A stretch of DNA of 64,000 bases from Candidatus Carthagonibacter metallireducens. Lineage in GTDB: Bacteria; Gemmatimonadota; Gemmatimonadetes; Palauibacterales; Palauibacteraceae. The DNA lies in contig JAMJQQ010000026.1 of assembly GCA_023554445.1 (NCBI GenBank), positions 5,549 through 69,548 on the forward strand, read 5' to 3'. Position 1 is the stretch's first letter. Each line of letters opens with the position of its first letter. Both the position numbers and the translations under genes were made by a program. Below, piece after piece: positions 6,059 through 49,122 of this stretch. Under the pieces are notes generated by a model. It did not search any database. It was not told the DNA's origin and saw only the letters and a program-made list of their open reading frames with translations.

Positions 6059-7609
<1,551 letters not shown>

Positions 7610-7698
7610 TCGAAACCGCGACTGCGTCCGGACAGGTGGCGCAAGCCGGGCGAAATCGCGCATGGCGCGCTCGACGGCCCTACAGGAGGCACTGCGTG

Positions 7699-26581: not shown

Positions 26582-26794
26582 TCGGGCCCGCCGGGTGTTT
26601 GGGACATCGATGCGGTCATAATGCTCGGGCGGTTCCGCACGCCTCGGTGGCCGGAAACGGTCGTCGAGCGGGCAACACCCGCCGGGCTGTGGAGTACACA
26701 CCCGGATCGAGCGCGTGTTCCGGATTGGCCACACGCGGCGACGAAAAAGGGCCGACCCGGGAACGGGGGTCCGAACGATCAAGGAGTCGAGGGA

Positions 26795-34834: not shown

Positions 34835-35569
34835 ATGGTGGCCGGCAGACCCGAAGTGATCGTGGCGCTGGACTATCCCGATTTCGAGTCGGCGTGGGCG
34901 CTCGTGGAGCAACTACCCGCAGACACCTGGTACAAGGTTGGCCTGGAGCTGTTCACGCGAGCCGGTCCCCCGGTCGTCGAGCGCCTGGCGGGAGAGGGCC
35001 GCAATGTATTCCTCGACCTCAAGCTGCACGACATACCGAATACGGTGGCCGGAGCGGTCCGGTCCGCATCGCGGCTCGGCGCTCGCCTGTTGACGGTGCA
35101 CGCGGCCGGAGGCGAGGCGATGCTCAGGGCGGCGGCCGACGCTGCCGTGGAGGCGGCTGCTGCGGGGAATGGCTCGGGAGCTCAGGCGCACAGCAGGCTC
35201 CGCCTGCTCGCGATTACCGTACTTACTTCTCTGGACGATGCTTCGCTGCCGGCGGTGTTCGGCCGCGGGGCCACGGTGGAGGAGACCGCCGGCCGGTTGG
35301 CAGGGCTCGCTCGTGAGAGCGGAATCGACGGAGCCGTGTCCTCCGTCAGAGAATGCCGGGCCATAAAGCTCGCCTGTGGTGAGGAGTTCATGGTCGTGAC
35401 ACCCGGGATCCGGCTCGCCGGCCAGGACGCACAGGACCAGGCCCGCGTCGCTACACCCGCCGTGGCTTCGGCGGCAGGGGCCGACTACCTCGTGGTGGGC
35501 CGGACGATCACGAAGTCGGAGGATCCACGCACCGCCCTCGAGACGGTCCGCGCGGCTATCGATTCCTGA
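34835..35569 (+). CDS. pyrF: Orotidine 5'-phosphate decarboxylase
   Basis: VIVALDYPD, FLDLKLHDIPNT, TPGIR and DYLVVGRTI motifs. ATG follows GGAGGAG. Confidence 0.9.
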   Translation: MVAGRPEVIVALDYPDFESAWALVEQLPADTWYKVGLELFTRAGPPVVERLAGEGRNVFLDLKLHDIPNTVAGAVRSASRLGARLLTVHAAGGEAMLRAAADAAVEAAAAGNGSGAQAHSRLRLLAITVLTSLDDASLPAVFGRGATVEETAGRLAGLARESGIDGAVSSVRECRAIKLACGEEFMVVTPGIRLAGQDAQDQARVATPAVASAAGADYLVVGRTITKSEDPRTALETVRAAIDS

Positions 35570-35591
35570 CCCTGGACGGTCCGCCTCGCGG

Positions 35592-36314
35592 TCAGATGTC
35601 TGCCGGCGAGAGCACGACAGGCCCGGTCTCGTTCCGCAGTCCGAGGTACTTCCGATATCGCGCCGAGTGCACGGACCGCTCTCGGACCGCTTCGTCGTAT
35701 CTTCCGGCAAGACCGAGAAGCAGCTCGGCCGATTCGCGCACGGCATGCTGGCCGCCCTCACGGCCGGTCGTGTAGTCGAACCTCTGCTCGCGCTCGGCCC
35801 AGCTGCGCAGCAGGGGCGTGGCGCCGTTGCGGATGAGAACTCGCAGTCCGCAGGCGTCGGCGACGCCGAGGTCGAGCACATCGTCGAACAGGAAGCAGAT
35901 CTGCTCCGGTCGGATCCCGAACCGGCTCTCCAGGTCCCGCAGGGCATGCAGCTTGTCGAGGAAACCCCGGTACACGACGTGAAAACGTTCGCGCTCGGCC
36001 AGTGCCACCGCAGCCGGATTATCCTGACCCGTCAGGACGCCGACGAATGGGAGGCGACCGTCTCTCAGCCACCAGCCGAAGCGGAGGAGGTTGGTTCCCA
36101 TGGCGTCCGACTCGGAGAAGCCGCTGGGAGTGCCGGTTCCCTTGATCCCCTCGTTGAAAACTCCGTCCCAGTCGAACAGGAATCCCTTGACCCCGGCCAG
36201 GCGGGCCCGGAGGTCTCCGGGGGAGGTGCGGAACTCGCCCCCCACGGCGCGGAAAGGAGCGAGAAGCCGATCGTCCGGCTCCTGAAAGACCGGGTGCGAA
36301 TCTCCCCGCGGCAT
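35592..36314 (-). CDS. HAD-IIIA phosphatase of the KdsC family (candidate Kdo-8-phosphate phosphatase), with about 40 aa of N-terminal extension
   Basis: Aligns along its length with E. coli KdsC: FLFDWDGVFNEG vs CDVDGVLSDG; GVLTGQ vs AIITGR; FLFDDVLDLGV vs YVGDDLIDWPV; GGQHAVRESAELLLGLAG vs GGRGAVREVCDLLLLAQG. Confidence 0.75.
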   Translation of the reverse strand: MPRGDSHPVFQEPDDRLLAPFRAVGGEFRTSPGDLRARLAGVKGFLFDWDGVFNEGIKGTGTPSGFSESDAMGTNLLRFGWWLRDGRLPFVGVLTGQDNPAAVALAERERFHVVYRGFLDKLHALRDLESRFGIRPEQICFLFDDVLDLGVADACGLRVLIRNGATPLLRSWAEREQRFDYTTGREGGQHAVRESAELLLGLAGRYDEAVRERSVHSARYRKYLGLRNETGPVVLSPADI

Positions 36315-37318
36315 CAGAGATCCTGGATGTCCAGCATGCCTACCGGACGACCCCGGTCGGTTACCAGCAGATTGTCCACCTTGTGTCGGTGGAACAGCTC
36401 ATCGGCCTCGTTGAGCCGGACCCCTCTCTCGATCGATATCGGAGTCCCGTACGGCAGATCGCTCATCCGTCGATCGAGCACGTCACGGCCGTTGGCCTGG
36501 AGCAGACGTCGCAGATCTCCATCCGTGAACACACCCACCAGATTGCCTTCGCCGTCCACCACGGTTACGCAGCCGAATCCGTACTCGGTCATGCTCACGA
36601 TCGCGTCGCGAAGCTCGGTGTCTGCCAGGACGGTCGGATTGACGCTGCTCATGACATCGCCGACGGTACGCGTGATCATCCGGGTGTGAACCCGGAATTG
36701 ATCGGTGCCGACCGAAGTGAACACGTTCTCTGTGAGGCGCGCGAGGATCGGAAAAGGCACCGTGATCGTGTGCGCGCCCAGCTGAAGTGCGTTGCGCACG
36801 TGCTCCACGTGGCGGACGGACGAGAACATGACGCGCGTTTCGTATCCGTAGCGTTCCACGGCATCTACCGCGTCCGCGACCAGAGCCAGAGCATCCTGTC
36901 CCTGATCCTGAAGCCGGCCCACGAGGGGGCATACGTAGGCGGCCCCTGCGTGCATGGCCATGTATGCCTGTTGCAGGGTGTAGACGAGGTGAACGTTGAC
37001 CATCAGCCCTTCGTCCGTCAGCCGGCGGCATGCCTTGATACCTTCCAGAGACACGGGAATCTTGAACACCGTACGCCCCGGCTCCAACCCGAGCTCCAGC
37101 TGGCGGATCGCTTCGGACCGGATCTCGTCGGCCGTATCCCCGAGCGCCTCGACCTGCAGCACAGGTACGATTCGAGCGAGATCGAGAAGGTAGGCGTCCA
37201 CGTCCTCGATGCCGTGCCGATGCATGAAGGTCGGTGTCGTGGTCAGACCATCGAGTATCCCGAGTCCGAAGGCTTCCTCGATCTCCCGTCGATCCGCACT
37301 GTCAAGGTACAGCTCCAT
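36314..37318 (-). CDS. Chimeric protein: transaldolase/fructose-6-phosphate-aldolase (TalC/FSA) family barrel fused to a KdsD-type CBS pair
   Basis: N-terminal MELYLDSAD, GLTTTPT, Schiff-base Lys in TVFKIPVS, and AYVCPLVGR. The C-terminal CBS pair carries GVFTDGDLRRLL and VGMLDIQDL. Confidence 0.8.
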   Translation of the reverse strand: MELYLDSADRREIEEAFGLGILDGLTTTPTFMHRHGIEDVDAYLLDLARIVPVLQVEALGDTADEIRSEAIRQLELGLEPGRTVFKIPVSLEGIKACRRLTDEGLMVNVHLVYTLQQAYMAMHAGAAYVCPLVGRLQDQGQDALALVADAVDAVERYGYETRVMFSSVRHVEHVRNALQLGAHTITVPFPILARLTENVFTSVGTDQFRVHTRMITRTVGDVMSSVNPTVLADTELRDAIVSMTEYGFGCVTVVDGEGNLVGVFTDGDLRRLLQANGRDVLDRRMSDLPYGTPISIERGVRLNEADELFHRHKVDNLLVTDRGRPVGMLDIQDL

Positions 37319-37340
37319 GTCGACTCTCTCTTCCGTTCTC

Positions 37341-38180
37341 TCAGGCCACCGGTCGGTGACGTACCTCTACCTCGTGAATCTCCAGCAGCGGAGCCAGGAA
37401 CGCCTCGAGATCGAATACGCAGAGCTGGCTCGCCGCATCGCACAGTGCGCGAGCTGGATCGGGATGCGTTTCGATGAACACGCCGTCCACGCCGGCGGCG
37501 ACACCCGAGCGGGCGATGACCGGCAGAAATTCCCGAGCCCCCCCGGACGGGTCGGCACTCGGGATGCCATAGCGACGGATCGAGTGCGTGATGTCGAAGA
37601 CGGTCGGGAATCCCGTCTTCCTGAGGTGATAGAAGGCGCGCGGGTCCACTACGAGATCGTTGTACCCGAAGGTGTAGCCACGTTCGGTGAGGAGTATGCG
37701 TTCGTTGCCTCGGGCGAGAACCTTCTCGACCGGCCGCATCATGTTCTCGGGTGCGAGGAACTGACCGTGCTTCAGATTCACCACCCGGCCCGTGTCTGCG
37801 GCAGCGACCACGAGCTCGGTCTGCATGCACAGGTAGGCCGGGATCTGTATGACGTCCAGAACCTCGCCGGCCTTCGTCGCCTGATCCGGCGTGTGCACGT
37901 CGGAGAGGATGGGAAACCCGAAGTCCGTCCGGATTCGGTCCAGGATTCTGAGGCCCTCGTCGAGCCCGGGCCCCCGGTAGTAGTCCAGAGAACTACGGTT
38001 GTCCTTGGTGAATGACGACTTGTAGATGACCCCGACGCCCGTCGCGGACGCCACCCGTGCCAGCTCCTCGGCGGTGCGCAGCATCACGCTCTCATCCTCG
38101 ATCACGCACGGTCCTGAGATCAGGAACATACTCGCGCCACCGACATCGATGTTTCCGAGCTGGAACGTACGCGTCGCCAT
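37341..38180 (-). CDS. kdsA: 3-deoxy-8-phosphooctulonate synthase (Kdo8P synthase), metal-dependent class
   Basis: Aligns end to end with Aquifex KDO8PS: ISGPCVIED (Cys ligand), YKSSFTKDNRSS, IQIPAYLCMQTEL, FDITHS (His), FIETHPDP (Glu), ALCDAA (Asp). Confidence 0.93.
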   Translation of the reverse strand: MATRTFQLGNIDVGGASMFLISGPCVIEDESVMLRTAEELARVASATGVGVIYKSSFTKDNRSSLDYYRGPGLDEGLRILDRIRTDFGFPILSDVHTPDQATKAGEVLDVIQIPAYLCMQTELVVAAADTGRVVNLKHGQFLAPENMMRPVEKVLARGNERILLTERGYTFGYNDLVVDPRAFYHLRKTGFPTVFDITHSIRRYGIPSADPSGGAREFLPVIARSGVAAGVDGVFIETHPDPARALCDAASQLCVFDLEAFLAPLLEIHEVEVRHRPVA

Positions 38181-38182
38181 GC

Positions 38183-39271
38183 CTAAAGCCTCCGGAAGAT
38201 CGCCTCGAGGCGGTCCAGCGTGATCTCACTCTGCCAGTCGGGCCCGAGGGCGTGGTCCCACATGTGAGGCAGGCCGAAGGCGATCTCCGCCATTCGCCGT
38301 ACCTGCTCGTCGGTCCAGCCGTCCGACATCCCTGCAGGAAGGCTTATCGAGTGCTTTTCGACCATCGCTTCGAACTCGTCCACGCCGTGAGGATAGAAGT
38401 CGCGCAGCTGTCGGAATGCGACACAGTTGGCGATTCCGTGCCGCATTCCAAGAACATAGGAGAGCCCGTATGAGATGGCATGGCAGGCGCCCACTTCCGA
38501 ATAGGTGAGACTCAGACCCCCGAACAACGAGGCGACCATCAACTTCTCGTCGTTCGCAGGAGATCGCCCGGCGCCGTCGTCCAGGAAGACCTCGCGGCAA
38601 AGCTTGAGCGCTTCGTCACCGTAGGCCTGGCTGAACGTGTTGAAGTGCCGGCCGGTCTCGGCCTCGATACAGTGGATGAAGCAGTCCATCCCCGTGTAGA
38701 ACCAGTGGTCGGTGGGGACGCTTGCGGTGAGGTCCGGATCGAGGACGAGCTGGTCGAAAGGCGTCCATTCGCATTTGAGTCCGAGCTTCTTCTCCGGGCC
38801 CGTGAGTACGGCGGTCATCGACACCTCGGCCCCGGTGCCGGAGATCGTCGGGATCCCGCAATGCCAGACGCCCGGCCGCTCGACGAGGTTCAACCCCTGG
38901 TAGCGAGTCGAGGAACCTTCGTTCGTGAGCATCAGGGACACCGCCTTCGCGACGTCCATGACGCTTCCGCCGCCGATTCCCACGACTGCGGAAGGAAGAG
39001 CGCTCCGGGACAGGATGCCGTCGCGCAACTCATCCACCTGTTCCGTCTTGGGCTCCTCGTGACTTGCATCGAGGTAGTGAACCTCGTCGCCCGACTCGAC
39101 CGCGAGACGTGCTTCCAGCTCCCGACCTTCGAACCAGTCGTCCACGAGGTAGACCACCGTTCCCGTGCCACTCCGACGCACCGGCTCGAGGATCGATCCC
39201 AGCTGATCGAGCGCCCCCCGCCCGTAGACGATCTTCCCGACGTTACGGAAGTTCCTGTGCATGTCTCTCAT
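38183..39271 (-). CDS. Iron-containing alcohol dehydrogenase family oxidoreductase (candidate Kdo 8-oxidase, KdnB-like)
   Basis: GIGGGSVMDVAKA nucleotide/metal fold. Metal ligands in GMDCFIHCIE and ACHAISYG. ATGA overlap with the upstream aminotransferase. The family call is firm; the KdnB-like role is inferred from context. Confidence 0.7.
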   Translation of the reverse strand: MRDMHRNFRNVGKIVYGRGALDQLGSILEPVRRSGTGTVVYLVDDWFEGRELEARLAVESGDEVHYLDASHEEPKTEQVDELRDGILSRSALPSAVVGIGGGSVMDVAKAVSLMLTNEGSSTRYQGLNLVERPGVWHCGIPTISGTGAEVSMTAVLTGPEKKLGLKCEWTPFDQLVLDPDLTASVPTDHWFYTGMDCFIHCIEAETGRHFNTFSQAYGDEALKLCREVFLDDGAGRSPANDEKLMVASLFGGLSLTYSEVGACHAISYGLSYVLGMRHGIANCVAFRQLRDFYPHGVDEFEAMVEKHSISLPAGMSDGWTDEQVRRMAEIAFGLPHMWDHALGPDWQSEITLDRLEAIFRRL

Positions 39272-40473
39272 GCCCCCCCGCCCAGCACGGAAGCGAGGGA
39301 TTCCCGAAGGGATTCGCCGATCCTGTCCGTATTCTCGGGCTCCCAACTGCATCCGACACCTATCGACACGAGACGGCCGATCACTTCCTGCGCTCCGGGA
39401 AGCTCGAGCGCCCTGTAATCCTGCGGGCTGCCGAGTGAGTGAATCGCGAGCGGGGCGGCGGCGTCGAGGTTCTTTACATGGTCCCACTGGTTGATGAAGT
39501 GGTACATGTTGGTGAACCAGTAGTTGACCCCCGGAACACCTGCCGCGCGCATCGAGGCTACGGCCGCCTCGGCGCTCTCCGAATCAGGCAACAGCAGATT
39601 CAGAAAGGTGCCCGAATCCCCCTCCGGGTCGGGCATTCGGCGGAAATCGAGACCCGGAAGATCCTCGACTGCGTCCCTCAGCCGGGCCTTGTTCGCCCGC
39701 TTCGCGGATCGGATTCGTTCCAGCTTCCGCATCTGCGCAACGCCGACTGCCGCATGAAGCTCGCTGATTCTGTAGTTGAAGCCCACGATCGGGTGTTCTT
39801 CCATTCCCCGATTGTCTCCCACGTGGTCATGCCCGTGGTCCGCATAGCTGTCTGCGAGGCGATACCGGGACTCGTCATCGGTGACGAACACTCCGCCCTC
39901 ACCCGCCGTCGTGATCTTGAAGAAGTCGAACGAGAATGCGCCGGTGAGGCCGAACCGTCCTACGGATCGCCCGTGATACCAGGCTCCCAGTGCCTGGCCG
40001 GCGTCTTCGACCAGCACGAGATCCCGGTCACGGCAGAGCTCCAGCAGCGGATCCATGTCGGCGGCGGCCCCGCACATGTGCACGAGCAGAATCGCCTTCG
40101 TGTTCGGAGTCAGCGCCGCCCTGACGCTGGCCGCGTCGAGGCAGAGCGTATCGTCGATGTCCGCGAACACGGGGAGGCCACCGGCCAGCAGCACCGCCTC
40201 GATCGTCGCCAGGTACGTAAAGGGCGGCACGATAACTTCGTCGCCGTATCCGATTCCGGCCGCCGCCAGAGCGCAGGCAACGGCGGTCGATCCGCTCGAA
40301 ACGGCGAGGGCATGTCCGGCACCCGTGTAGTCGCAGACCAGGTTCTCCATCTCGCGCGCCTTCCAGCGGTCCATTCGTCGATCTTCGTGACCGTACCGGA
40401 AGAGGATGCCGGTCTCCAGCACCTCCATGACCTCCCTTCGCTCCTCGTCACCGAACAGTTCGGTTCCCGGCAT
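39268..40473 (-). CDS. DegT/DnrJ/EryC1/StrS-family PLP aminotransferase (candidate 8-amino-Kdo transaminase, KdnA-like)
   Basis: SSGSTAV, LVEDAGQALGA, and the PLP-Lys motif FSFDFFKITTAGEGG. First gene of the operon. The family call is firm; substrate is inferred from context. Confidence 0.7.
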   Translation of the reverse strand: MPGTELFGDEERREVMEVLETGILFRYGHEDRRMDRWKAREMENLVCDYTGAGHALAVSSGSTAVACALAAAGIGYGDEVIVPPFTYLATIEAVLLAGGLPVFADIDDTLCLDAASVRAALTPNTKAILLVHMCGAAADMDPLLELCRDRDLVLVEDAGQALGAWYHGRSVGRFGLTGAFSFDFFKITTAGEGGVFVTDDESRYRLADSYADHGHDHVGDNRGMEEHPIVGFNYRISELHAAVGVAQMRKLERIRSAKRANKARLRDAVEDLPGLDFRRMPDPEGDSGTFLNLLLPDSESAEAAVASMRAAGVPGVNYWFTNMYHFINQWDHVKNLDAAAPLAIHSLGSPQDYRALELPGAQEVIGRLVSIGVGCSWEPENTDRIGESLRESLASVLGGGA

Positions 40474-40683
40474 CGCGCGTCGCTCTCTTGCAGGTTGTCC
40501 ACGATCCTTACGGGTGACTCCCGTTCAGGCGAGAGAAGCTACGGGCGGCGTCGGGGAGCGTCCAGCGGGACGCCCGCGCTTGATCCTCGCGGTCCGGCAG
40601 CGCAACGTGCTCCACGTCAGGAGCCTCGGAACGGATCGGAAAGGCCGATTCTCTATCGAAGGAGAACATTGAGCAGGTTCACG

Positions 40684-41571
40684 ATGTCCAGGCGATTCGC
40701 TGCGGTGGTCGGTCTGGTAGCGGTCACCGCCGTGGGTGCTCCCGCCACAGGCATGGCACAGGTCGAGATTCCCCCACCGGTGGGCCTGGTCAACGACTTC
40801 GCGGAGGTCATTCCCCCTGCCGCAGAGGTGCGCATATCGGAGATCGTCGAAGAGGTGCGCGCGAAGTCGGGTGGAGAGATCGTAGTCGTCACGCTCCCCG
40901 ATCTCGGTGGCGTACCGCGGACCGAGCTGGCGCACCGGATCGGGAATGAATGGGGCGTTGGCAAGGCCGGCGCTCCCGGCGAGACGGGACGGCAGACGGG
41001 TACCGTGGTCCTCGTGATCCCGAAGGAGACCTCGACGGACGGACGGGGCCACATCGAAATCGCGCTGGCCTTCGGAGCCAACACGTTCATCACGGCGTCA
41101 GAATCGGGCCGGATTCGGGATCGCTACATGATCCCCGCGTTTCGGGAACAGGACTACGCTGCCGGGATCGAAGAGGGCGTAAGGGCTCTGGCCGGGCAGT
41201 ACGCTGCCGAGTTCGGATTCGACATCGACGGGGTGATTCCGCCGCCCGTGCTCCCGGCCGAAGGCGACGGCATTCCGCTGGGAACGATCATCCTGCTGCT
41301 CGGGCTCCTGTTTCTGATTCTCTATGCGATTTCGAAGCGGTCTCGGGGGGGGCGCGGCGGACGAGGAGGTCCCGGCTCGGGAATGGGTGGTGGCGGCCGA
41401 AGGGGTCCGGTGATCGTGCCGTTCCCGACGGGAGGAAGCTCCCGCGGAGGATGGGGCGGGTCGGGTGGCTTCGGCGGTGGCTTCGGGGGCGGCGGCCTCG
41501 GCGGGGGAGGCTTCGGGGGTTTCGGCGGAGGAGGGGGCTTCGGGGGTGGAGGTGCGGGAGGCAGCTGGTGA
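40684..41571 (+). CDS. TPM-domain protein (YgcG-like) with TM helix and Gly-rich tail
   Basis: Signal peptide. LVNDFAEVIP...IVVVTLPDLGG TPM core. TM helix LGTIILLLGLLFLILYAI. Tail GGFGGGFGGGGLGGGGFGGFGGGGGFGGGGAGGSW. Confidence 0.8.
   Translation: MSRRFAAVVGLVAVTAVGAPATGMAQVEIPPPVGLVNDFAEVIPPAAEVRISEIVEEVRAKSGGEIVVVTLPDLGGVPRTELAHRIGNEWGVGKAGAPGETGRQTGTVVLVIPKETSTDGRGHIEIALAFGANTFITASESGRIRDRYMIPAFREQDYAAGIEEGVRALAGQYAAEFGFDIDGVIPPPVLPAEGDGIPLGTIILLLGLLFLILYAISKRSRGGRGGRGGPGSGMGGGGRRGPVIVPFPTGGSSRGGWGGSGGFGGGFGGGGLGGGGFGGFGGGGGFGGGGAGGSW
41341..41568 (+). repeat. Low-complexity GGN/TTC codon repeat encoding the Gly-rich tail of the TPM protein
   Basis: Iterated ggcttcggggg / ggcggcgg units. 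They translate to GGFGGGFGGGGLGGGGFGGFGGGGGFGGGG. Confidence 0.6.
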
Positions 41572-41599
41572 GAGCAGTGGACGAGAAGGAGGCAGCCGG

Positions 41600-42340
41600 G
41601 TGAGCGCAACACGTGCTCTGGTAGCGAAGTCGGAGGTGGTGGACGGACTCGCAGCAGAATTCGGCGAGCGACTGAGATCGGTCGTCCTGTACGGGTCGGT
41701 ACCGCGCCAGGAGTCGATACTCGGCGTGAGCGACGTCAATCTGCTGGTCCTCCTCGACCGGGTGACGCTGGATGACCTGCGTCGGTTGTCGTCGATCGCC
41801 CGCCGGTGCGTGGACCTCGGGAGGGCGGCACCGATGCTGTTCGGCTGGGACGAGTTCCGGCAGTCGACCGATGCGTTCGCGATCGAGATGGCGGACCTGC
41901 AGGACGGACGCGAGATCGTCTACGGACAGGATCCCGTGGTCGATCTGGTCGTACCGCGAGAGGCACTGAGGCACCAGCTCGAGCACGAGATTCGGGCCCG
42001 GCATGCGCAGCTCCGGGAGGGACTGATGCTCGCGGCGCCGATTCCCGCTGCCGTCGGCGAGCTGCTCGAGCACGGGCTGCCGGCGTTCGTCTGCTATCTC
42101 CGGTCTATCCTGAGACTGGCCGGGCGCGAGGTTCCCTCCACGTCGGAGGACGTGATCCGGGCCGCCGCCAACCTCGTCGACGCCAGGCCAGACGCATTCC
42201 TGGATGTCTGGGGGGCCCGCAGGGCCGGATTCGTGCCCGAGATCGACATTGAGGATCCGCTCGTCGAGGCGTACATCGAGCTGGTGGAGCGGAGTATAGT
42301 CTGGGTCGACCAGACCGGAATCGACGCAACGAAAGGATGA
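41600..42340 (+). CDS. Nucleotidyltransferase-fold protein (ANT/KNTase-like N-domain + helical C-domain)
   Basis: LYGSVPRQESILGVSDVNLLVLLD fits the G-S-x(n)-D-x-D NTase pattern, but reads D-V-N. GTG 41600 follows GAAGGAGG. Confidence 0.6.
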   Translation: MSATRALVAKSEVVDGLAAEFGERLRSVVLYGSVPRQESILGVSDVNLLVLLDRVTLDDLRRLSSIARRCVDLGRAAPMLFGWDEFRQSTDAFAIEMADLQDGREIVYGQDPVVDLVVPREALRHQLEHEIRARHAQLREGLMLAAPIPAAVGELLEHGLPAFVCYLRSILRLAGREVPSTSEDVIRAAANLVDARPDAFLDVWGARRAGFVPEIDIEDPLVEAYIELVERSIVWVDQTGIDATKG

Positions 42341-42431
42341 GCGGGAAGCAGGAGCGAACGAGACGAGCGCCACCGCGTGTGCTCGCCAACAGCTATGGCC
42401 CCGGCGTGGGCCTGGAAGAAGGAGAATCTTG

Positions 42432-43049
42432 ATGAAACAGAGACACGCGGCAGGTCGCTTGCCACTGCTCGCCCTGGCGCTCAGCCTTCCACTCGGGGCC
42501 TGCGGATACAACACGATCCAGGAACTCGACGAGGGAGTTGAAGAGTCGCGCGGAAACGTCGAAGCGGAGCTGATGCGCAGGAACGACCTGATTCCCAACC
42601 TCGTAGCCACGGTGGATGAGGCGGCAGCCTTCGAAGAGAGAACTTTCACACAGGTCGCGGAAGCCCGGTCCGGACTGACCGAATCACGCGAGCGGCTGGA
42701 ACAGGCCGTTCAGGGTGACGCGTCGCTCGAAGAATTGAGCGCCGCGAGTGCGAGTGTGGCCGACAACTTGAGGCTGTTTCTCAACGTGTCCGTGGAGGCG
42801 TATCCGACCCTTACGGCCAACCAGAGTTTCCGGGCGCTGCAGGACGAGTTGACCGAGACCGAGAATCGGATCGCCTTTTCGCGTCGGACCTACAACGAAA
42901 CGGTCAGGAATTACAACACCTTCATCCGCCAGTTTCCGCAGGCGATCACCGCCTGGGTGATTCGCGCCAGGCCTCACGAGACGTTTTCTGCTCCTGCATC
43001 TGCGATGGATGCGCCCGCGGTGGACTTCGGCGGAACGTCGGACGGGTGA
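42432..43049 (+). CDS. lemA: LemA family protein
   Basis: N-terminal anchor/lipobox-like LGACGYNTIQ, RRNDLIPNLV, AYPTLTANQSFRALQDEL and YNTFIRQFP. ATG follows AAGGAGAA. Confidence 0.85.
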   Translation: MKQRHAAGRLPLLALALSLPLGACGYNTIQELDEGVEESRGNVEAELMRRNDLIPNLVATVDEAAAFEERTFTQVAEARSGLTESRERLEQAVQGDASLEELSAASASVADNLRLFLNVSVEAYPTLTANQSFRALQDELTETENRIAFSRRTYNETVRNYNTFIRQFPQAITAWVIRARPHETFSAPASAMDAPAVDFGGTSDG

Positions 43050-44998
43050 GGGCGGCTGGCATGAACAGGGTGACACTTCGCGCGCTCGTCTGTCTGTCGC
43101 CGGTCGCGCTGGCCGGACTCTCTACGCACGGCCCCGCGGCGCTCCATGCCCAGCAGAGCGAAGCCGAGCAAAGGGTGGCGGAACTCGCCGGGCGCTACGA
43201 GAAATCGGAACACCGCGTGGAGATGCGGGATGGCACATCCCTTTACCTGGCGCTCTACGAGCCGCGCGAGCGACGCGCGGAAGAGCTTCCCATCCTGCTC
43301 ACGCGCACGCCCTACAGCTGCAATCCATACGGGCCGGAGCAGATGCCGCCGCGGATCGGGCCCAATCGCCTGCTCGAGGATGAGGGTTACATCTTCGCCT
43401 GCCAGGACGTGCGCGGCCGCTTCCAGTCAGAAGGCACCTACGACAACATGCGGCCTCACGTGCCCGGTGAGCTGCCGATCGACGAGAGCTCCGATACCTG
43501 GGACACGATCGAGTGGCTGGTGCAGAACGTGCCGTCGAACAACGGCAGGGTGGGGATGTGGGGGATCTCGTATCCCGGCTTCTACGCGGCGGCAGCGCTG
43601 CCCGAAGCGCATCCCGCACTCGTCGCGTCGTCGCCCCAGGCGCCGATCGCCGATTTTTTCTTCGACGACTTCCACCATCACGGCGCCTACACTCTCGCCT
43701 ACTGGTTCATCACACCGGTCTTCGGCTACCAGCAGGACTCGCTGAACACCGGGAACTGGTTCCGATTTCCGACGCGCACCTCGCGGGACGGATACAAGTT
43801 CTACATGGATCTCGGACCCCTCGAGAATTCCGACGCCGTTTACGACTCCACCAACTTCTTCTGGCAGCAGCTGGTCGAACATCCCAACTACGACGAATTC
43901 TGGCAGGCACGGAACATCCTTCCGCACCTCCATGGGGTCGATCATGCGGTGCTCACGGTCGGCGGCTGGTACGATGCCGAAGATCTGTACGGTCCGCTCA
44001 ACATTTATCGAACCCTGGAGCGCGAGAATCCGGACATCGCCTACAACGGCCTCGTCATGGGTCCCTGGGGACACGGGGACTGGGCCCGCACCCTGTCCCC
44101 ACACGTGATTGGCGACATCGAGTACGGGGACGACATCTCGGGATGGTACCAGCGCGAAGTGGAAGCACCGTTCTTCCGCTACTGGTTGAACGGTGCCGGA
44201 GCCCCTCCCGAGTTCGACGCGCTGACTTTCGATACCGGAAGCAAGGAATGGCGGGCTTTCCCGGCCTGGCCGCCGGTCGAAGCAGACACCCGGACGCTCT
44301 ATTTGCGGGACGATGAGGTCCTGTCGTGGCAGGCGCCGTCAGCCGGCGAGGGTGAATTCACCGAATACGTGAGCGATCCGAACGAGCCGGTTCCTTACAC
44401 GGACGACATCCGGTTCGTGTTCACGCCGCGGCGATACATGAACGAGGACCAGCGCTTCGCCGAGCGGCGGCCGGACGTGATCGAGTTTCAGACCGAACCG
44501 CTCGAAGAGGAGCTGACGCTCGGGGGAGATGTCCTCGTCCGGCTGCAAGTCTCTACGACCGGCACGGATTCCGACTGGATCGTCAAGCTCATCGATGTCT
44601 ATCCCGATGATACGCCCAACGGTGAGCACACACCGGAAGGCGTGGTGCTCGGGGGATATCAGCAGATGGTTCGCAGCGAGATCTTCCGCGGTCGATTCCG
44701 CGACAGCTACGAGTTCCCCGCGGCATTCGTCCCCGGGGAGCGCACCGCGGTCGAGTTCCCGCTTCAGGATCTGCTGCACACGTTCAAGCCCGGGCACCGG
44801 ATCATGGTCCAGGTGCAGAGCAGCTGGTTTCCGCTGTTCGACCGGAACCCGCAGACCTTCGTGCCGAACATCTTCGAGGCAGAGGAGAAGCACTTCGTGA
44901 AGGCGACGCAACGAGTGTGGCACACCCCCGCTGCGGCCAGCCGGCTCGAGGTCAAGGTGCTGCCCCCCGGGTCGGGTCTGAAGATGGGGAGCGACTAG
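43046..44998 (+). CDS. CocE/NonD family hydrolase (S15 X-Pro dipeptidyl-peptidase-like), secreted
   Basis: TRTPYS, nucleophile elbow GMWGISYPGF, and a C-terminal beta-jelly-roll region. GTGA overlap with lemA; an alternative ATG is at 43061. Confidence 0.85.
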   Translation: MRAAGMNRVTLRALVCLSPVALAGLSTHGPAALHAQQSEAEQRVAELAGRYEKSEHRVEMRDGTSLYLALYEPRERRAEELPILLTRTPYSCNPYGPEQMPPRIGPNRLLEDEGYIFACQDVRGRFQSEGTYDNMRPHVPGELPIDESSDTWDTIEWLVQNVPSNNGRVGMWGISYPGFYAAAALPEAHPALVASSPQAPIADFFFDDFHHHGAYTLAYWFITPVFGYQQDSLNTGNWFRFPTRTSRDGYKFYMDLGPLENSDAVYDSTNFFWQQLVEHPNYDEFWQARNILPHLHGVDHAVLTVGGWYDAEDLYGPLNIYRTLERENPDIAYNGLVMGPWGHGDWARTLSPHVIGDIEYGDDISGWYQREVEAPFFRYWLNGAGAPPEFDALTFDTGSKEWRAFPAWPPVEADTRTLYLRDDEVLSWQAPSAGEGEFTEYVSDPNEPVPYTDDIRFVFTPRRYMNEDQRFAERRPDVIEFQTEPLEEELTLGGDVLVRLQVSTTGTDSDWIVKLIDVYPDDTPNGEHTPEGVVLGGYQQMVRSEIFRGRFRDSYEFPAAFVPGERTAVEFPLQDLLHTFKPGHRIMVQVQSSWFPLFDRNPQTFVPNIFEAEEKHFVKATQRVWHTPAAASRLEVKVLPPGSGLKMGSD

Positions 44999-45017
44999 AC
45001 CTTCGGCAGGGGAAGGG

Positions 45018-45425
45018 TCAGGCAGGGGGCGGGCCGCCGGGTTCGGTCGGCATACCGGATCCGGGCCGTCGCACGTGTCGGATCCATACTCCGCTGTAGA
45101 CGGCCAGATTGAACAGCAGCAGCAGGATGCCCAGCCAGATGTGCAGCCGATCCCAGTCGGCCGGATAGAGGATCGGGTCGAGGTAGCGCTCGAGGAAGCC
45201 TCCCTCGAATCCGGCCTCTCCGGCGCGGGCGCGGAGATTCCACTCCAGTGGGGTGAGCGGACAGATCCAGCCGACGAGCTCGATCCCGATCGCGTAGATC
45301 AGGACCGGAAGGTGAAGCCAGGCGAGGCGAGGCTTGAGGAGGACCATCAAGCCTCCGAGTGACGCGAATGCCGCGAATGCGAAGTGCGCGAGCATCACGA
45401 GGTCCGCCGCCAGCGACCAGCCCAC
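45018..45425 (-). CDS. DUF2784-like small membrane protein
   Basis: Four hydrophobic helices and a CPLTPLE motif. GTG start. Confidence 0.55.
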   Translation of the reverse strand: MGWSLAADLVMLAHFAFAAFASLGGLMVLLKPRLAWLHLPVLIYAIGIELVGWICPLTPLEWNLRARAGEAGFEGGFLERYLDPILYPADWDRLHIWLGILLLLFNLAVYSGVWIRHVRRPGSGMPTEPGGPPPA

Positions 45426-45471
45426 GTCCCGACTCCTTCCTCGAGATCTTCCGGCTACGGACCCCCGCGCC

Positions 45472-47232
45472 TCAGGGGCTTCGCAGCGAGTGCTCGCCGC
45501 CCTTGGCGGACTCCACCGTCACGGTGAATGGGCCGCTTCCCCGAACCAGCCACTTCACCGCTACCGTGCCCATTCCGTCTATTCGCTCCACCTCAATGCG
45601 CTCGGGACGGTGCTCCTGCTCCTCGGCGATTCCCTGCAGAGGGTTTTCGATCCGGAAGCCTGCGATCACGCGTCCGCCCTCGATCCGAATCCGGTCCGGC
45701 GGGCTGATCCCGTGAACGACATCCTGCTCCGTGCGCGTGGGCGCGAGCTTCCGATTCGAGATCAGGGCGCGGACTTCACTCACGCCACTCCCGAGCGACC
45801 GCACCTCCACGGAGTCCACCCGCACCAGGGGCATCTGTCCGGCCTGATACAGTGTGAAAGCCATGTTCCGGTGCGCCTCTTCACGAAGGAGGAAGCCGGG
45901 TATGGCCCGCGTGTACTGTCGCTTGACTCCGCCCACCTCGATGCGGCCGTACTGGGGGTGATCCACCGGTGTCCAGGGCACGATCGCCTCCCCGAACAGC
46001 AGGTATCGATCGAATCGGTAATCCGCCCGATCCCAGCGCTCATTTTCGGGTGATTCGCGGAAGTAATTGAACGAGGTCCAGAGCTCGTTGCTGAAGGTGA
46101 TGATCCCGCGGCCTGCGTAGAACCAGTCCAGTTCGTTTCCCCAGGTCGTGTAGAGGTCTTCCCAGATCGAGATATAACGGTAGCCGGGAAGGATCATCTC
46201 TCCACGCTCGCCGATCTCGTCCATCACCCTCAGGTCGGCTGCCTGCACGCTGTCGGACTCTGTTCCCGGCCCGCGCAAGATCATGCCGCCGGTGTTGTGA
46301 TAGGTCTGGGCGGCGGCGATGTTGGGGTGTGCCAGGACGAATTCCACCACGGCACGCGTCTCGGGCAGGGAGGTGGGAAAGGCATCGGAGCCGGACTGCA
46401 CGTACGCGGGTGCCCACCGCCAGGGCCAGTTCCGGTTGGGATCGTAATAACCGCGACGATCCTCGTTGACTCTCCCGTCCCCATCGTTGTCGAATCCTTC
46501 ATTCCCGAGGAGCTCCCACTCGCCAGGCTGGTCGGCGTGGGCCCGGACCATGATGCGAGGATCTTCCGGCGACGTGATCCAGCGCCCGTTCGAGCTGCGC
46601 CGGCGCATCATCGTGATGTGGCCGTCGCCGTCCAGGTCATCGAAATCGTCCTCGTCGAACAGTCCATCTCCGTCGTCGTCACGCGGGGCGAGGCCGCTGC
46701 GTGGACTGTGCGGCGTGTTCGGCTCGAGAAGGAAGTTGTCCCGACCATCCGGGTTGATCGAGGGAACGATGTAGAAGGTGCGATCCCTCAGCAGCTCGGC
46801 GATCCAATCGACGCGGTCGGCCATTTCGCAGAGGTACCAGGCCGTGTACAGGGCGATCTCGGATCCCTGGACTTCATTGGCGTGGATGTTCCCATCGATC
46901 CACATCGCAGGCTTGGCATCCGCCTCTCCAGCCTGGAAATCGGTGACTGTGAGCAACCACAGGTCGCGCCCTTCGACGCTACGTCCGATGGAAGAGAATC
47001 GGCACCTGTCGGGCCAGGCCTCTTCGAGGCGACGACCGATCTCTCCGAGTGTCTCGTGATCGAAATAGCGGTCCCAGGAGACGGCGACCTGCGGGTCGGG
47101 CGGCGCACCGAGACCGGCCATCGCGCCCGGAGGGGATTGCTGCGCCCATGCTGCCGTGGGAAGCAAAGCCAGGAGCGAAGCGCCGATGATGAAGTTCACG
47201 GCGGCGGCGGAGACATTCAGATGGCTGGTCAT
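45472..47232 (-). CDS. Secreted M14-family zinc carboxypeptidase with Asp-rich (Ca-binding-like) inserts
   Basis: Signal peptide. Zinc/catalytic motifs are intact: IDGNIHANEVQGSE (HxxE), DPNRNW, TYHNTGG. Inserts DDDGDGLFDEDDFDDLDGDG and NDGDGRVNED. Confidence 0.85.
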   Translation of the reverse strand: MTSHLNVSAAAVNFIIGASLLALLPTAAWAQQSPPGAMAGLGAPPDPQVAVSWDRYFDHETLGEIGRRLEEAWPDRCRFSSIGRSVEGRDLWLLTVTDFQAGEADAKPAMWIDGNIHANEVQGSEIALYTAWYLCEMADRVDWIAELLRDRTFYIVPSINPDGRDNFLLEPNTPHSPRSGLAPRDDDGDGLFDEDDFDDLDGDGHITMMRRRSSNGRWITSPEDPRIMVRAHADQPGEWELLGNEGFDNDGDGRVNEDRRGYYDPNRNWPWRWAPAYVQSGSDAFPTSLPETRAVVEFVLAHPNIAAAQTYHNTGGMILRGPGTESDSVQAADLRVMDEIGERGEMILPGYRYISIWEDLYTTWGNELDWFYAGRGIITFSNELWTSFNYFRESPENERWDRADYRFDRYLLFGEAIVPWTPVDHPQYGRIEVGGVKRQYTRAIPGFLLREEAHRNMAFTLYQAGQMPLVRVDSVEVRSLGSGVSEVRALISNRKLAPTRTEQDVVHGISPPDRIRIEGGRVIAGFRIENPLQGIAEEQEHRPERIEVERIDGMGTVAVKWLVRGSGPFTVTVESAKGGEHSLRSP

Positions 47233-48971
47233 CGCAGTTGGATCTCCTTCCGGTCACGCCCGGCCGAGGCCGACCCGGCGCTGACGGCAACGCGTCCGTT
47301 GCCCTTTCCGACCACGATCCACGTCAGCTCTTCCGCCGAACCGCTCCCGGGCAGTGCTTCCAGCAATCGAACCGCACGACCGCCGGCGAGCTCCTGCCCG
47401 TTCGTCTCCAGATCGACCCGGACGGATCGCGGTCGACCCAGCCTGTCGGCCAGCCGGGTGCGCGTCGGCAGATATCCGGTGTTGGCGATCCGGACCGAGA
47501 CTCTCCATGTGTCATCGCCCAGCGATTCCGCTTTCGACTCCACGATCTCGATGCGGGGAAGGAGCATCGCGATATCGATCAGGAATTCGACTTCCTTGCG
47601 GACGATGGAGTCCCGGATCGCCGCTGGCGGTGTCCAGCCGGTGAGTGGCCTGAAGCCTCCGACTTCAACCCTTCGGTCTTCGAAGTCGGGGTGATCGACC
47701 GGCTCCCAGTCGAGAAAGTCTTCCGGTCGGTTGGCTCGAATCCAGCGGAGCCGTCGTCGCTCCGCTGCCACCGGATCCGAAGCCTCGCTGGTTCGTGAGT
47801 CGCCGGACCCGGACCGGGAGGCGGAGTCCGACGCCGCCTCTCGATCTTCCGGGATCGCGGTGGTGCTGTCGGGTCGCTCTGCGGCCGGCGGTGTCCAGAC
47901 CGAAGAACCGAAGGCCCAGCGCCCCATCTGAAAATAGGCCCATGAGAGCGGGTCGCCGCCTTCGGGCCGGACCCCGAGGGTGTCGGACTCCGAGCGTCCC
48001 GTCCGCTCCCGATAACGTCGGGCGATCTCCGCATACCACGGTGCATCACCGGCGAGCGCGAATTTCAATGGTTCGCGGACTCGTTCGCCCTCCGAGCCGG
48101 GCTCGCCGGCCGGGTTCGATTTCCACGGCGAGAGAAGATTGTCTCTGGTCCCGAATACCACGACCATGCCGATCTCATCGCGGTCGGCCAGCAATTGAGC
48201 GACCGCACGGGCCTCCGGTGCCGAGAGGGGGTAATCGCCCGCCACCGATTCGAACCATGGATATCGGCGCGGGAAGTTGGCTCCGATGTCCACGCCCCCC
48301 TTCGGATCCTCGTTGAATCGGCCGTCGCCGTCGTCGTCCCTGCCCTCGACCAGAAGCCGCCAGGAAGGGCTGTCTCCCCGGGCAGGATCAGCGATCCTCA
48401 TCAGGCCGGGCTCGTCCTCGTCTTCCGTGTATTCTCCGGTCGCGTCCTCGATCCGCATCATCGTGATCCAGCCGTCGCCATTCAGGTCGTCGGGGCCATC
48501 CTCGTCCACGAGTCCATCGCGATCATCGTCGCGCGGCTGGTCGTTTCGGCGGGTCTCGTGAACCGGTCGCAGACGGGAGGAGCGTTCAGCGTCGGGGCTG
48601 AGCAGCGGAATGAAGTGAACGGTAACTCCGTCGAGCAGGGATGTGATCTCGGGGTCGCTCCCGTATCCGTCCGAGAGTCGCTCGATCGCGGCGAGAGCGA
48701 CGTCGGTGCCTATGGCGTGCGCTGCCTGCTCGCCGGCCAGGACGAGAACCGCCGGTCGGCCGCCGCCGTCCCCGGGGCCGGCTACGGTGGCCAGGAGGAG
48801 ATCTGCTCCCCCGGCCGAACGTCCAATGGAAGTGACATCGACACGGTCGGAGCGATTCAGCGCGCGCAACCGATCCGAGGGATCCTGAGCAGTCGCGTCC
48901 GCCGGGTCGGACGCCATGAAAGCGAACAGCGCCAGCGCAAAAAGAGTCCTGTCCAGAGTACGAATCGCCAT
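47229..48971 (-). CDS. M14-like paralogue lacking the zinc ligands (probable pseudopeptidase)
   Basis: Collinear with the downstream M14 gene, including the Asp-rich inserts. HxxE becomes Q..H (GEQAAHAIGTD), NRN becomes GAN, and the third His becomes Phe (VVFGTRD). ATGA overlap with the downstream gene. Start at MAIRTL. Confidence 0.75.
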   Translation of the reverse strand: MAIRTLDRTLFALALFAFMASDPADATAQDPSDRLRALNRSDRVDVTSIGRSAGGADLLLATVAGPGDGGGRPAVLVLAGEQAAHAIGTDVALAAIERLSDGYGSDPEITSLLDGVTVHFIPLLSPDAERSSRLRPVHETRRNDQPRDDDRDGLVDEDGPDDLNGDGWITMMRIEDATGEYTEDEDEPGLMRIADPARGDSPSWRLLVEGRDDDGDGRFNEDPKGGVDIGANFPRRYPWFESVAGDYPLSAPEARAVAQLLADRDEIGMVVVFGTRDNLLSPWKSNPAGEPGSEGERVREPLKFALAGDAPWYAEIARRYRERTGRSESDTLGVRPEGGDPLSWAYFQMGRWAFGSSVWTPPAAERPDSTTAIPEDREAASDSASRSGSGDSRTSEASDPVAAERRRLRWIRANRPEDFLDWEPVDHPDFEDRRVEVGGFRPLTGWTPPAAIRDSIVRKEVEFLIDIAMLLPRIEIVESKAESLGDDTWRVSVRIANTGYLPTRTRLADRLGRPRSVRVDLETNGQELAGGRAVRLLEALPGSGSAEELTWIVVGKGNGRVAVSAGSASAGRDRKEIQLR

Positions 48972-49122
48972 CTGCCGAAACCTCACGAACCTGGAGCACG
49001 ATGACCGGCGGCTTCCGAGTACGGAACGTCGTGCGGCACGCGGTACGCGGCAAGCGGTCCGGGTCCGCAAGGTGGACCCCTCCGGGCATGGGGCGGTATT
49101 CGTAGTCCGGGGGAGGAAATCC

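Follow-up and report, generated by a model that had tools for sequence, protein, structure and literature searches.

We confirmed a five-gene operon in a Gemmatimonadota bacterium, located in the 64-kb stretch of DNA that was analysed as a whole (the window), which very probably makes the 8-amino form of Kdo (Kdo8N) for lipopolysaccharide (LPS). This reading holds because of the identities of KdnA, KdnB, KdsA and the KdsC-family gene (Table 1). The operon is notable for a transaldolase-like enzyme, here called TAL/CBS, where the usual arabinose-5-phosphate (A5P) isomerase KdsD would be; a published description of such a fusion was not found in the literature. As the best overall explanation, we consider it probable that an ordinary Kdo locus is combined with kdnAB to yield Kdo8N, with TAL/CBS as the A5P source.

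Table 1. Genes of the operon in transcriptional order, with predicted products, coordinates in the window and basis of the assignment.
Gene	Predicted product	Coordinates	Strand	Basis
kdnA	Kdo8N (8-amino-3,8-dideoxy-D-manno-octulosonate) transaminase, PLP-dependent, DegT family, 401 aa	39268..40473	-	Pfam, PDB match
kdnB	Kdo 8-oxidase/dehydrogenase, Fe-ADH family, 362 aa (or 359 aa)	38183..39271	-	Pfam, PDB match
kdsA	Metal-dependent 3-deoxy-8-phosphooctulonate (Kdo8P) synthase, 279 aa	37341..38180	-	NCBIfam, PDB, metal site
TAL/CBS	Putative arabinose-5-phosphate supplier in the kdsD slot	36314..37318	-	Pfam, NCBIfam, AF2, context
kdsC'	Divergent KdsC-family phosphatase (HAD, C0 type), 240 aa	35592..36314	-	NCBIfam, PDB, motifs

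Layout and genomic setting of the operon

The ORF coordinates and the directly read junctions bear out the original prediction of five minus-strand ORFs, their ends and their head-to-tail packing, and every overlap or gap is at most 22 nt. The TGA of kdnA and the ATG of kdnB share the ATGA at 39271-39268, kdnB and kdsA are separated by 2 nt, the 22-nt gap between kdsA and TAL/CBS contains a purine-rich stretch, and TAL/CBS and kdsC' overlap by 1 nt in TGATG. Because the homologues of KdnB are 359 aa long, its true start may be the second ATG at 39262 (M4 of MRDMHRNF), which would replace the overlap by a 5-nt gap. Downstream, the operon is bounded by the convergent pyrK-pyrD-pyrF genes, which end at 35569. 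A scan of limited use in these phyla returned neither a sigma-70-like promoter on the operon strand nor a terminator. In the window, the cassette has neighbours of unrelated function, namely housekeeping genes of pyrimidine synthesis and peptidase genes. As predicted, kdsB, waaA and lipid A genes are missing from the 64 kb, judged by the homologue search.

Enzymes for Kdo synthesis and amination

The Kdo8N pathway of Shewanella oneidensis was reportedly described by Gattis et al. in 2013, with KdnB (EC 1.1.3.48) and KdnA (EC 2.6.1.109) as its enzymes. Full-length orthologues of both are encoded here, and the metal, NAD and PLP-lysine positions are conserved in them. KdnA belongs to Pfam DegT_DnrJ_EryC1 (E 1e-80), and its residues 1-393 match S. 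oneidensis KdnA (PDB 5k8b) with E 7e-122 and 410 bits at 45.4% identity, the SFDxxK PLP-lysine segments being aligned. The runner-up in the PDB, a perosamine synthetase, reaches 173 bits, and S. oneidensis KdnA scores far higher than the structures of scyllo-inosose and NDP-sugar aminotransferases. When S. oneidensis KdnA was used as query against the window, the kdnA product was the sole DegT match. KdnB carries the Pfam domains Fe-ADH (E 8e-24) and ADH_Fe_C; its residues 5-362 match S. oneidensis KdnB (PDB 5k8c) with E 2e-118 and 399 bits at 50.4% identity, compared to 104 bits for the runner-up. Metal and NAD motifs do not vary throughout the KdnB family, and both FCB-type and gammaproteobacterial KdnB contain GGGS and D196/H200/H264/H278 without exception. 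Hence, both identities that had been proposed stand well above other Fe-ADH and DegT structures. At the level of the protein sequences, these comparisons show KdnA and KdnB to be orthologues of the characterised Shewanella enzymes, and we infer the corresponding enzymatic activities.

The original call of KdsA holds as well. The protein matches Pfam DAHP_synth_1 (E 7e-57) and passes the equivalog cut-offs of NCBIfam NF003543 (335 bits, cut-off 242) and TIGR01362 (327 bits, cut-off 314). Its best 40 PDB matches are all KDO8PS (192-243 bits), compared to at most 95 bits for DAHP synthases. The translation contains the quoted motifs KSSFTKDNRSS, ISGPCVIE, FDITHS, FIETHP and LCDAA, and the Cys/His/Glu/Asp metal positions align with those of the metal-dependent KDO8PS of Aquifex aeolicus. 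These features identify KdsA as a genuine KDO8P synthase.

The product of kdsC' has N- and C-terminal extensions and found no match in Pfam. Its score on the NCBIfam KdsC model NF007019 (E 4e-14, 52.6 bits) is below the cut-off of 208. Nevertheless, 15 of the 18 PDB matches listed at E<=1 are KdsC/YrbI-family HAD phosphatases, including the best one (E 4e-13, residues 33-210), and the DxDGV and DDxxD motifs are retained. Used as query, E. coli KdsC matched kdsC' in the window and its equivalents in 69 related loci. The predicted KdsC-family HAD phosphatase can thus be upheld as KdsC-like by the NCBIfam and PDB matches, and family and position together suggest that it acts as Kdo8P phosphatase.

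A transaldolase/CBS fusion in the kdsD position

TAL/CBS combines a short transaldolase/FSA-type barrel (residues 1-~210) with a KdsD-like pair of CBS domains (~218-334), detected in Pfam as TAL_FSA (E 6e-33) and two CBS domains (E 6e-17). The CBS pair has KpsF/KdsD as its top match in NCBIfam and the KdsD CBS domain 4o9k in the PDB; it is 30% identical to that of E. coli KdsD, including a common FTDGDLRR motif. Like kdsD in the kdsD-kdsC arrangement of E. coli, TAL/CBS lies directly upstream of a KdsC-family gene. However, E. coli KdsD, GutQ and KpsF consist of a SIS and two CBS domains, whereas TAL/CBS has the transaldolase/FSA TIM barrel in place of the catalytic SIS domain, and the SIS ene-diol isomerase mechanism cannot apply to it. 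A search for SIS domains in the window and in 85 loci found none.

In the AF2 model (pLDDT 86), the barrel shares the fold of E. coli FsaA and the short decameric transaldolases of T. acidophilum, B. subtilis and T. maritima, with a target-normalised TM of 0.84-0.89 to the decameric transaldolases. TAL/CBS keeps D6, E57, K86, N108, R135 and R169, among them the Schiff-base Lys86 and the Asp6, Asn108 and Arg135 common to FsaA and the short transaldolases. The score on the FSA equivalog TIGR00875 (141.6 bits) is below the cut-off of 246, the Gln59/Tyr131 pair of FSA is absent, and Glu57 is that of transaldolases, whereas FSA has Gln. Unlike both groups, the family carries a fused CBS pair and four invariant changes, namely N28T, T110H, S130C (Ser or Ala in the relatives) and F132L (Phe132 in transaldolases, Tyr131 in FSA).

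We infer that TAL/CBS supplies A5P in place of KdsD, because of its KdsD/KpsF-like CBS pair, the lack of SIS domains in the 85 loci, the intact barrel and the precedent of FsaA. The latter interconverts A5P and glycolaldehyde plus glyceraldehyde-3-phosphate with a Km of 0.65 mM and a kcat of 3.6 /s (PMC6900487), a reversible cleavage equal to the reaction proposed here. The likeliest mechanism would be an FSA-like Schiff-base aldol reaction of these two compounds on Lys86, with His110 and Leu132 in place of the Thr/Phe pair by which aldolase action is barred in ordinary transaldolases; the CBS pair would have been retained for regulation. The complete route from central metabolites that was originally predicted would hinge on such an A5P supply, which is plausible. 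KdsA would then condense PEP and D-arabinose-5-phosphate to Kdo8P, which the KdsC-like phosphatase would convert to free Kdo. Subsequently, KdnB would oxidise the C8-OH to the aldehyde and KdnA would transaminate it to Kdo8N. Finally, KdsB would activate the LPS inner-core sugar in its 8-amino form, and WaaA would attach it to lipid IVA; both enzymes are presumably encoded elsewhere in the genome.

Distribution and alternative explanations

The TAL/CBS fusion occurs in at least 591 species genomes. Synteny was counted in 54 well-flanked species loci, where TAL/CBS adjoins Kdo genes in 49; kdsA is present in 43, a HAD gene follows TAL/CBS in 43, kdnA plus kdnB are found in 35 and kdsB in 20. 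The five-gene order recurs in all close Gemmatimonadota relatives (nine loci) and in many Bacteroidota, e.g. Chryseolinea serpens DSM 24574, which argues against a chance arrangement. A rearranged divergent version has an unchanged gene set. Chitinophagaceae-type loci of the Bacteroidota form waaA-kdnA-kdnB-kdsA-TAL/CBS-kdsC'-kdsB operons, in which KdsB exceeds the NCBIfam cut-offs and WaaA has a Pfam Glycos_transf_N domain and is matched by models of lipid IVA Kdo transferases, though below their cut-offs. The trio kdsA-TAL/CBS-kdsC' was also found without kdnAB, and isolated TAL/CBS genes have envelope and housekeeping neighbours. The core of the cassette is kdsA-TAL/CBS-kdsC', and kdnAB is a frequent add-on.

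TAL/CBS could be a CBS-regulated ordinary transaldolase or other sugar-phosphate enzyme, with a canonical SIS isomerase elsewhere making A5P, for which a CBS-less API reportedly found in Bacteroides fragilis could be a model. Consistent with this are the barrel, closest to the true transaldolases of T. maritima and B. subtilis, the retained Glu57 and the phosphate-binding Arg135 and Arg169, and the scope of the SIS/KdsD search, i.e. the window and 85 loci. Moreover, the A5P proposal is weakest at the aldolase mechanism, since we know of no obvious steady cellular source of glycolaldehyde. But the linkage to Kdo genes persists across several different gene orders, the CBS pair is specifically KdsD-like, the residues at the four changed active-site positions are unlike those of all transaldolases, and the identity of TAL/CBS between phyla is very high (63-68%). 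We therefore regard such a role of TAL/CBS as possible but less likely. A departure from Kdo altogether, with the DegT/Fe-ADH pair acting on a cyclitol or NDP-sugar, appears very improbable. Scyllo-inosose and AHBA-type DegT enzymes are among the weaker PDB matches of KdnA (139-157 bits), and the folds shared by KDO8PS/DAHPS and by Fe-ADH/DHQS would allow a wider aminoshikimate- or aminocyclitol-type version, with enzymes resembling DAHP synthase and DHQ synthase as its base. However, the bit scores of KdnA and KdnB far exceed those of the next classes, KdsA reaches 116 bits on DAHPS models compared to its passed KDO8PS cut-offs, a DHQ_synthase Pfam match is absent, and synteny with kdsB and waaA extends over three phyla.

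The original prediction also suggested that the operon stands apart from housekeeping Kdo synthesis, possibly running parallel to it. In this version, a self-contained Kdo8N module would exist besides another kdsA/kdsC/kdsD set, and its product might serve a capsule or another glycoconjugate instead of the lipid A core. The window without kdsB, waaA and lipid A genes, the unrelated neighbours and the 57-69% identity of all five proteins between Gemmatimonadota and Bacteroidota, which would suit a mobile module, agree with it. Nevertheless, the Bacteroidota operons with waaA and kdsB, the kdnAB-free cores expected for a general Kdo route, the setting of isolated TAL/CBS genes and the GC content, which is not anomalous, disfavour this claim, and we consider it unlikely. 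Most likely, the cassette is the housekeeping LPS Kdo locus of the lineage with kdnAB attached, because relatives join these genes to kdsB and waaA and the core exists without kdnAB.

The operon and the Kdo8N genes of Shewanella share the order kdnA-then-kdnB and the linkage to Kdo genes. The predicted difference from Shewanella in linking kdnAB to kdsA and kdsC was found as well, and it extends to Gammaproteobacteria: in Shewanella baltica, kdnA-kdnB is followed by kdsB only, and Hydrogenovibrio has kdnA-kdnB-kdsB-waaA, whereas kdsA, TAL/CBS and the KdsC-like gene lie downstream here, in another phylum. Kdo8N has been reviewed as exclusive to Shewanella (PMC4402001); in JGI and NCBI annotation, the KdnB name is already widespread outside this genus.

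Identity of the operon products

Five minus-strand ORFs packed head to tail had been claimed in the original prediction, and all of them are present with the same ends (see the table). Reading the junctions directly gave the 2-nt gap before kdsA, the 22-nt purine-rich gap before the gene encoding the transaldolase/CBS protein (TAL/CBS) and the TGATG overlap before kdsC', the gene of a divergent KdsC-family HAD phosphatase. Only the ATGA overlap between kdnA and kdnB has to be qualified. An ATG overlapping the kdnA stop does exist at 39271-39268, but a second candidate ATG is found 9 nt away at 39262, and because the KdnB homologues comprise 359 aa it is more likely the true kdnB start, which would remove the overlap. 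The kdnB ORF can also be extended upstream to a GTG at 39487.

Coordinates of the operon genes and of neighbouring features in the window
Feature	Position	Strand	Remark
kdnA	39268-40473	-	
kdnB	38183-39271	-	counted from the ATG at 39271
kdsA	37341-38180	-	
TAL/CBS	36314-37318	-	
kdsC'	35592-36314	-	
ORF	40525-41052	-	upstream of kdnA; no Pfam or NCBIfam match
ORF	41465-42340	+	upstream of kdnA; no Pfam or NCBIfam match
LemA	42429-43049	+	between kdnA start and S15 peptidase gene
Variable stretch	40474-43050		kdnA start to S15 peptidase gene
Peptidase-rich regions	43046-49232; 26432-28309		
IMP dehydrogenase	6104-7609	+	TIGR01302, 623 bits

The Fe-ADH-family product matched the Kdo 8-oxidase KdnB of S. 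oneidensis (5k8c) over residues 5-362 with an E value of 2e-118 and 399 bits (50.4% identity), while the next structure class in the PDB search reached 104 bits. Its nucleotide motif GGGS (G100-S103) and the metal ligands, one Asp and three His (D196, H200, H264 and H278), do not vary across aligned members from Gemmatimonadota, Bacteroidota, Shewanella, Hydrogenovibrio and further sources. The assignment as KdnB, i.e. a predicted oxidase of C8 of free Kdo, is right. The same applies to the DegT-family aminotransferase, which matched S. oneidensis KdnA (5k8b) over residues 1-393 with an E value of 7e-122 and 410 bits (45.4% identity) and aligns with it in the SFDxxK segment carrying the PLP lysine. 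Lower PDB matches were perosamine synthetase with 173 bits and 2-deoxy-scyllo-inosose and AHBA enzymes with approximately 139-157 bits. As in Shewanella and Hydrogenovibrio, kdnA is located directly upstream of kdnB, and a reverse search of the window with Shewanella KdnA and KdnB hit one place each. Hence, because of these matches, the reverse search and the conserved sites, a placement of the DegT/Fe-ADH pair in clades with other substrates, whose scores are far lower, is excluded at the level that sequence can reach.

KdsA exceeded the cut-offs of two NCBIfam equivalogs (NF003543, 335 versus 242; TIGR01362, 327 versus 314), and all four metal ligands named for it originally (Cys, His, Glu and Asp) align with the metal-dependent KDO8PS of Aquifex aeolicus. 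The kdsC' product is more divergent. It contains HAD motifs I and IV as DWDGV (DxDGV) and DDVLD (DDxxD), and its matches in the PDB search were almost all KdsC-family phosphatases (best E value 4e-13); the NCBIfam KdsC-family models stayed below threshold (52.6 versus a cut-off of 208, and 48 versus 107) and the Pfam search gave no match. An aminocyclitol or aminoshikimate cluster, built from DAHPS-like, DHQS-like and AHBA-synthase-like enzymes, was considered first. It was rejected because no DHQ_synthase match was found, KdsA lies above the KDO8PS cut-offs, and the KdnA and KdnB scores far exceed those of the AHBA-synthase and inosose-aminotransferase matches. By the product identities, the predicted enzymology of 8-amino-Kdo (Kdo8N) synthesis was right.

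Gene order in related loci and the link to the LPS inner core

For a synteny survey, as had been suggested originally, the five window proteins served as tblastn queries and all neighbouring ORFs were clustered. Every close Gemmatimonadota relative keeps the five-gene order, and so do many Bacteroidota. The closest TAL/CBS proteins among the matches listed belong to Gemmatimonadota MAGs with 94% and 91% protein identity; in one of these MAGs (locus L004), 12 kb run collinear with the window at a nucleotide identity of 84%. The other carriers among the matches listed are Bacteroidota, namely Chitinophagaceae, Cytophagales, Cyclobacteriaceae, some Bacteroidales, Chryseolinea serpens DSM 24574 and Siphonobacter; the C. 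serpens strain (locus L032) has all five genes of the cassette. Scanning one genome per species placed TAL/CBS in at least 591 species, and thousands of homologues share the same two-domain architecture with 334-340 aa.

The count of neighbours used 54 species loci in which the sequence extends at least 4 kb upstream and at least 2.5 kb downstream of the TAL/CBS gene. At least one Kdo-pathway gene was found beside it in 49 of the 54 loci; kdsA and a KdsC-like gene each occurred in 43, kdnA together with kdnB in 35, kdsB in 20 and waaA in six. The neighbouring cytidylyltransferase is above the KdsB cut-offs, and the glycosyltransferase assigned as waaA carries Pfam Glycos_transf_N and gave sub-threshold matches to lipid IVA Kdo-transferase models. 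The Chitinophagaceae-type order is waaA-kdnA-kdnB-kdsA-(PIN)-TAL/CBS-kdsC'-kdsB, and in a rearranged form kdnA-kdnB diverges from kdsB-kdsA-TAL/CBS-kdsC'. In nine loci and in L085, another related locus, kdsA-TAL/CBS-kdsC' occurs without kdnAB nearby. Isolated TAL/CBS genes have housekeeping or envelope genes as neighbours, e.g. those of FabI, Skp and adenylate kinase. Unlike the cassette context here, the order is kdnA-kdnB-kdsB in Shewanella baltica and kdnA-kdnB-kdsB-waaA in Hydrogenovibrio crunogenus. Linkage to the CMP-Kdo synthetase KdsB and the Kdo transferase WaaA was thus found in orthologous Bacteroidota cassettes, and for kdnAB also in Gammaproteobacteria. These gene orders link the cassette with the inner core of LPS.

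The original prediction correctly noted that kdsB and waaA are missing from the 64-kb window, from which it had inferred that the operon looks like a separate branch, possibly running beside housekeeping Kdo synthesis. This idea is unsupported, since the related loci connect the cassette with kdsB and waaA and since kdsA-TAL/CBS-kdsC' also exists without kdnAB. The absence of both genes rather reflects a dispersed layout in Gemmatimonadota and is no sign of a separate pathway. A second kds set elsewhere in the genome, outside the 64-kb window, is formally possible. Nevertheless, we argue that these lineages ordinarily make their Kdo by way of kdsA-TAL/CBS-kdsC' and that kdnAB is a frequent add-on, which would turn free Kdo into Kdo8N ahead of its activation. 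As a whole, the reading as a Kdo8N/LPS operon is in our judgement quite probable.

A putative replacement of KdsD

The N-terminal domain of TAL/CBS belongs to the transaldolase/fructose-6-phosphate aldolase family (Pfam PF00923, 114.9 bits versus a cut-off of 27, E value 6e-33), and its barrel is of the short, decamer-type transaldolase kind. An AF2 model with a pLDDT of 86 gave target-normalised TM values of 0.84-0.89 to 1vpx, 3r8r and 3s0c, by which the modelled barrel fold is confirmed; the model speaks to the fold only. The closest NCBIfam and PDB matches of the CBS pair are KpsF/KdsD proteins, and only this half matches the KpsF/KdsD model (TIGR00393, positions 156-266). In E. coli KdsD the CBS half is 30% identical and shares the FTDGDLRR motif, and E. 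coli kdsD is likewise located directly upstream of a KdsC-family gene, the position that the TAL/CBS gene holds here. In contrast to E. coli KdsD with its N-terminal catalytic SIS domain, TAL/CBS has no SIS domain. With the E. coli SIS domain as query, neither the window nor the 85 related loci, with approximately 8-10 kb on each side, yielded a SIS-type KdsD, whereas the E. coli CBS half found every TAL/CBS gene in the same set. The second tblastn match of the TAL/CBS query in the window is due to the CBS pair of IMP dehydrogenase, the gene of which is the only other CBS-pair region detected there.

The active site combines retained and altered residues. The Schiff-base Lys86 is retained in TAL/CBS, as are Asp6, Glu57, Asn108 and two phosphate-binding residues, Arg135 and Arg169. 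At four active-site positions Asn28 is replaced by Thr, Thr110 by His, Ser130 by Cys and Phe132 by Leu, and these replacements are invariant in the family. Neither the complete transaldolase set (Asn28, Glu60, Thr110, Phe132) nor the complete FSA set (Gln59, Thr109, Tyr131) is present in TAL/CBS, and the FSA equivalog TIGR00875 scored 141.6 against a cut-off of 245.95. The residue at position 132 (Phe, or Tyr in FSA) and Thr110 control protonation of the enamine intermediate and so decide between transferase and aldolase activity. The roles of Lys86 and of Glu60 and Phe132 in the Thermoplasma acidophilum transaldolase are confirmed by the titles of PDB entries for a K86A variant and for an E60Q/F132Y variant with a DHA Schiff base.

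Most diderm bacteria cannot do without Kdo synthesis, which represents a drug target, and to our knowledge KdsD is regarded as the universal enzyme at the start of this pathway. The E. coli enzyme FsaA catalyses the reversible cleavage of arabinose-5-phosphate to glycolaldehyde and G3P with a Km of 0.65 mM and a kcat of 3.6 /s (PMC6900487), which is why we propose TAL/CBS as a supplier of arabinose-5-phosphate. Most simply, this would occur by the aldol reaction of glycolaldehyde with glyceraldehyde-3-phosphate, a route whose weak point is the source of glycolaldehyde. More speculatively, TAL/CBS may act on ribose-5-phosphate, either by lysine-iminium C2 epimerisation or by retro-aldol cleavage followed by re-addition. 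In our judgement, the supply of arabinose-5-phosphate by TAL/CBS has an even to slightly better than even chance of being correct. The wider claim, that it represents an undescribed, non-orthologous replacement of KdsD, which works with a Schiff base on a class I aldolase fold and supplies this sugar phosphate in hundreds of species of Bacteroidota and Gemmatimonadota, stands at even odds.

If TAL/CBS indeed replaces KdsD, nature has two mechanistically unrelated ways to carry out the first committed step of LPS inner-core synthesis, and a new enzyme activity would be defined. Furthermore, should this hold across Bacteroidota and Gemmatimonadota, the "missing kdsD" in pathway reconstructions of these phyla would be explained, and the unexplained CBS pair of KdsD would gain a second context in which its regulation can be studied.

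Predicted spread of Kdo8N and surroundings of the cassette

In a review from 2014, Kdo8N is described as exclusive to Shewanella, where it is linked to resistance against polymyxin and bile salts (PMC4402001). Our literature search retrieved no paper on Kdo8N outside Shewanella and none on a transaldolase-CBS protein in Kdo synthesis. NCBI annotation names KdnB in Corallincola, Aliikangiella, Sulfurivirga and Hydrogenovibrio, NCBIfam has no model naming either protein, and TAL/CBS is annotated only as a "transaldolase family" or "CBS domain-containing" protein. For KdnB the databases are ahead of the literature, and therefore the predicted spread of Kdo8N is already implicit in annotation. Hence, the Kdo8N part is a known pathway in new phyla and a new operon layout, and the putative substitution of KdsD by TAL/CBS is the novel part of the operon. 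From the cassette, Kdo8N is predicted to be widespread among the Bacteroidota and Gemmatimonadota of soil and freshwater, which, if true, would make it a common inner-core sugar well beyond Shewanella.

The GC content is approximately 65% across the whole window, at which GC3-based gene calling discriminates weakly, so the neighbouring genes were assigned by Pfam. The operon end lies 22 nt from the convergent pyrK-pyrD-pyrF genes, which end at 35569. Scans of the window for tRNAs and Rfam families gave no match, and a promoter and terminator scan of 35300-42500 was not informative, with a single promoter-like site, located on the wrong strand, and no terminator. The stretch of approximately 2.6 kb upstream of kdnA is present in L004 and in the related locus L007 and is missing from L006, L009 and L084; hence it represents a variable insert. 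The peptidase-rich surroundings encode an S15 X-Pro dipeptidyl peptidase, two M14 carboxypeptidases and an M28 peptidase, and L084 has the same neighbours.

Several additional genes recur beside related cassettes. A PIN-domain gene lies between kdsA and the TAL/CBS gene in Chitinophagaceae-type loci (L040, L041 at 7563-7976, L048, L053, L076, L079 and L080). An extra ORF of 213-223 aa with no Pfam or NCBIfam match occupies the same place in L023 (7262-7933), L077 and approximately eight other Bacteroidota loci, is duplicated in L077 (6605-7246 and 7255-7920) and may be a further component of the cassette. A polyphosphate kinase gene was found next to the cassette in L023, L024, L026, L027, L034, L036, L043, L077 and L088, where it directly follows the KdsC-like gene in convergent orientation; L088 is the exception, with the kinase gene on the same strand downstream of kdnB; L003 and L016 have a myo-inositol oxygenase gene instead. 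Bacteroidota-type cassettes also appeared in MAGs titled "Bordetella parapertussis" and "Candidatus Saccharibacteria" (L052 and L071), which are probably mis-binned or mislabelled.
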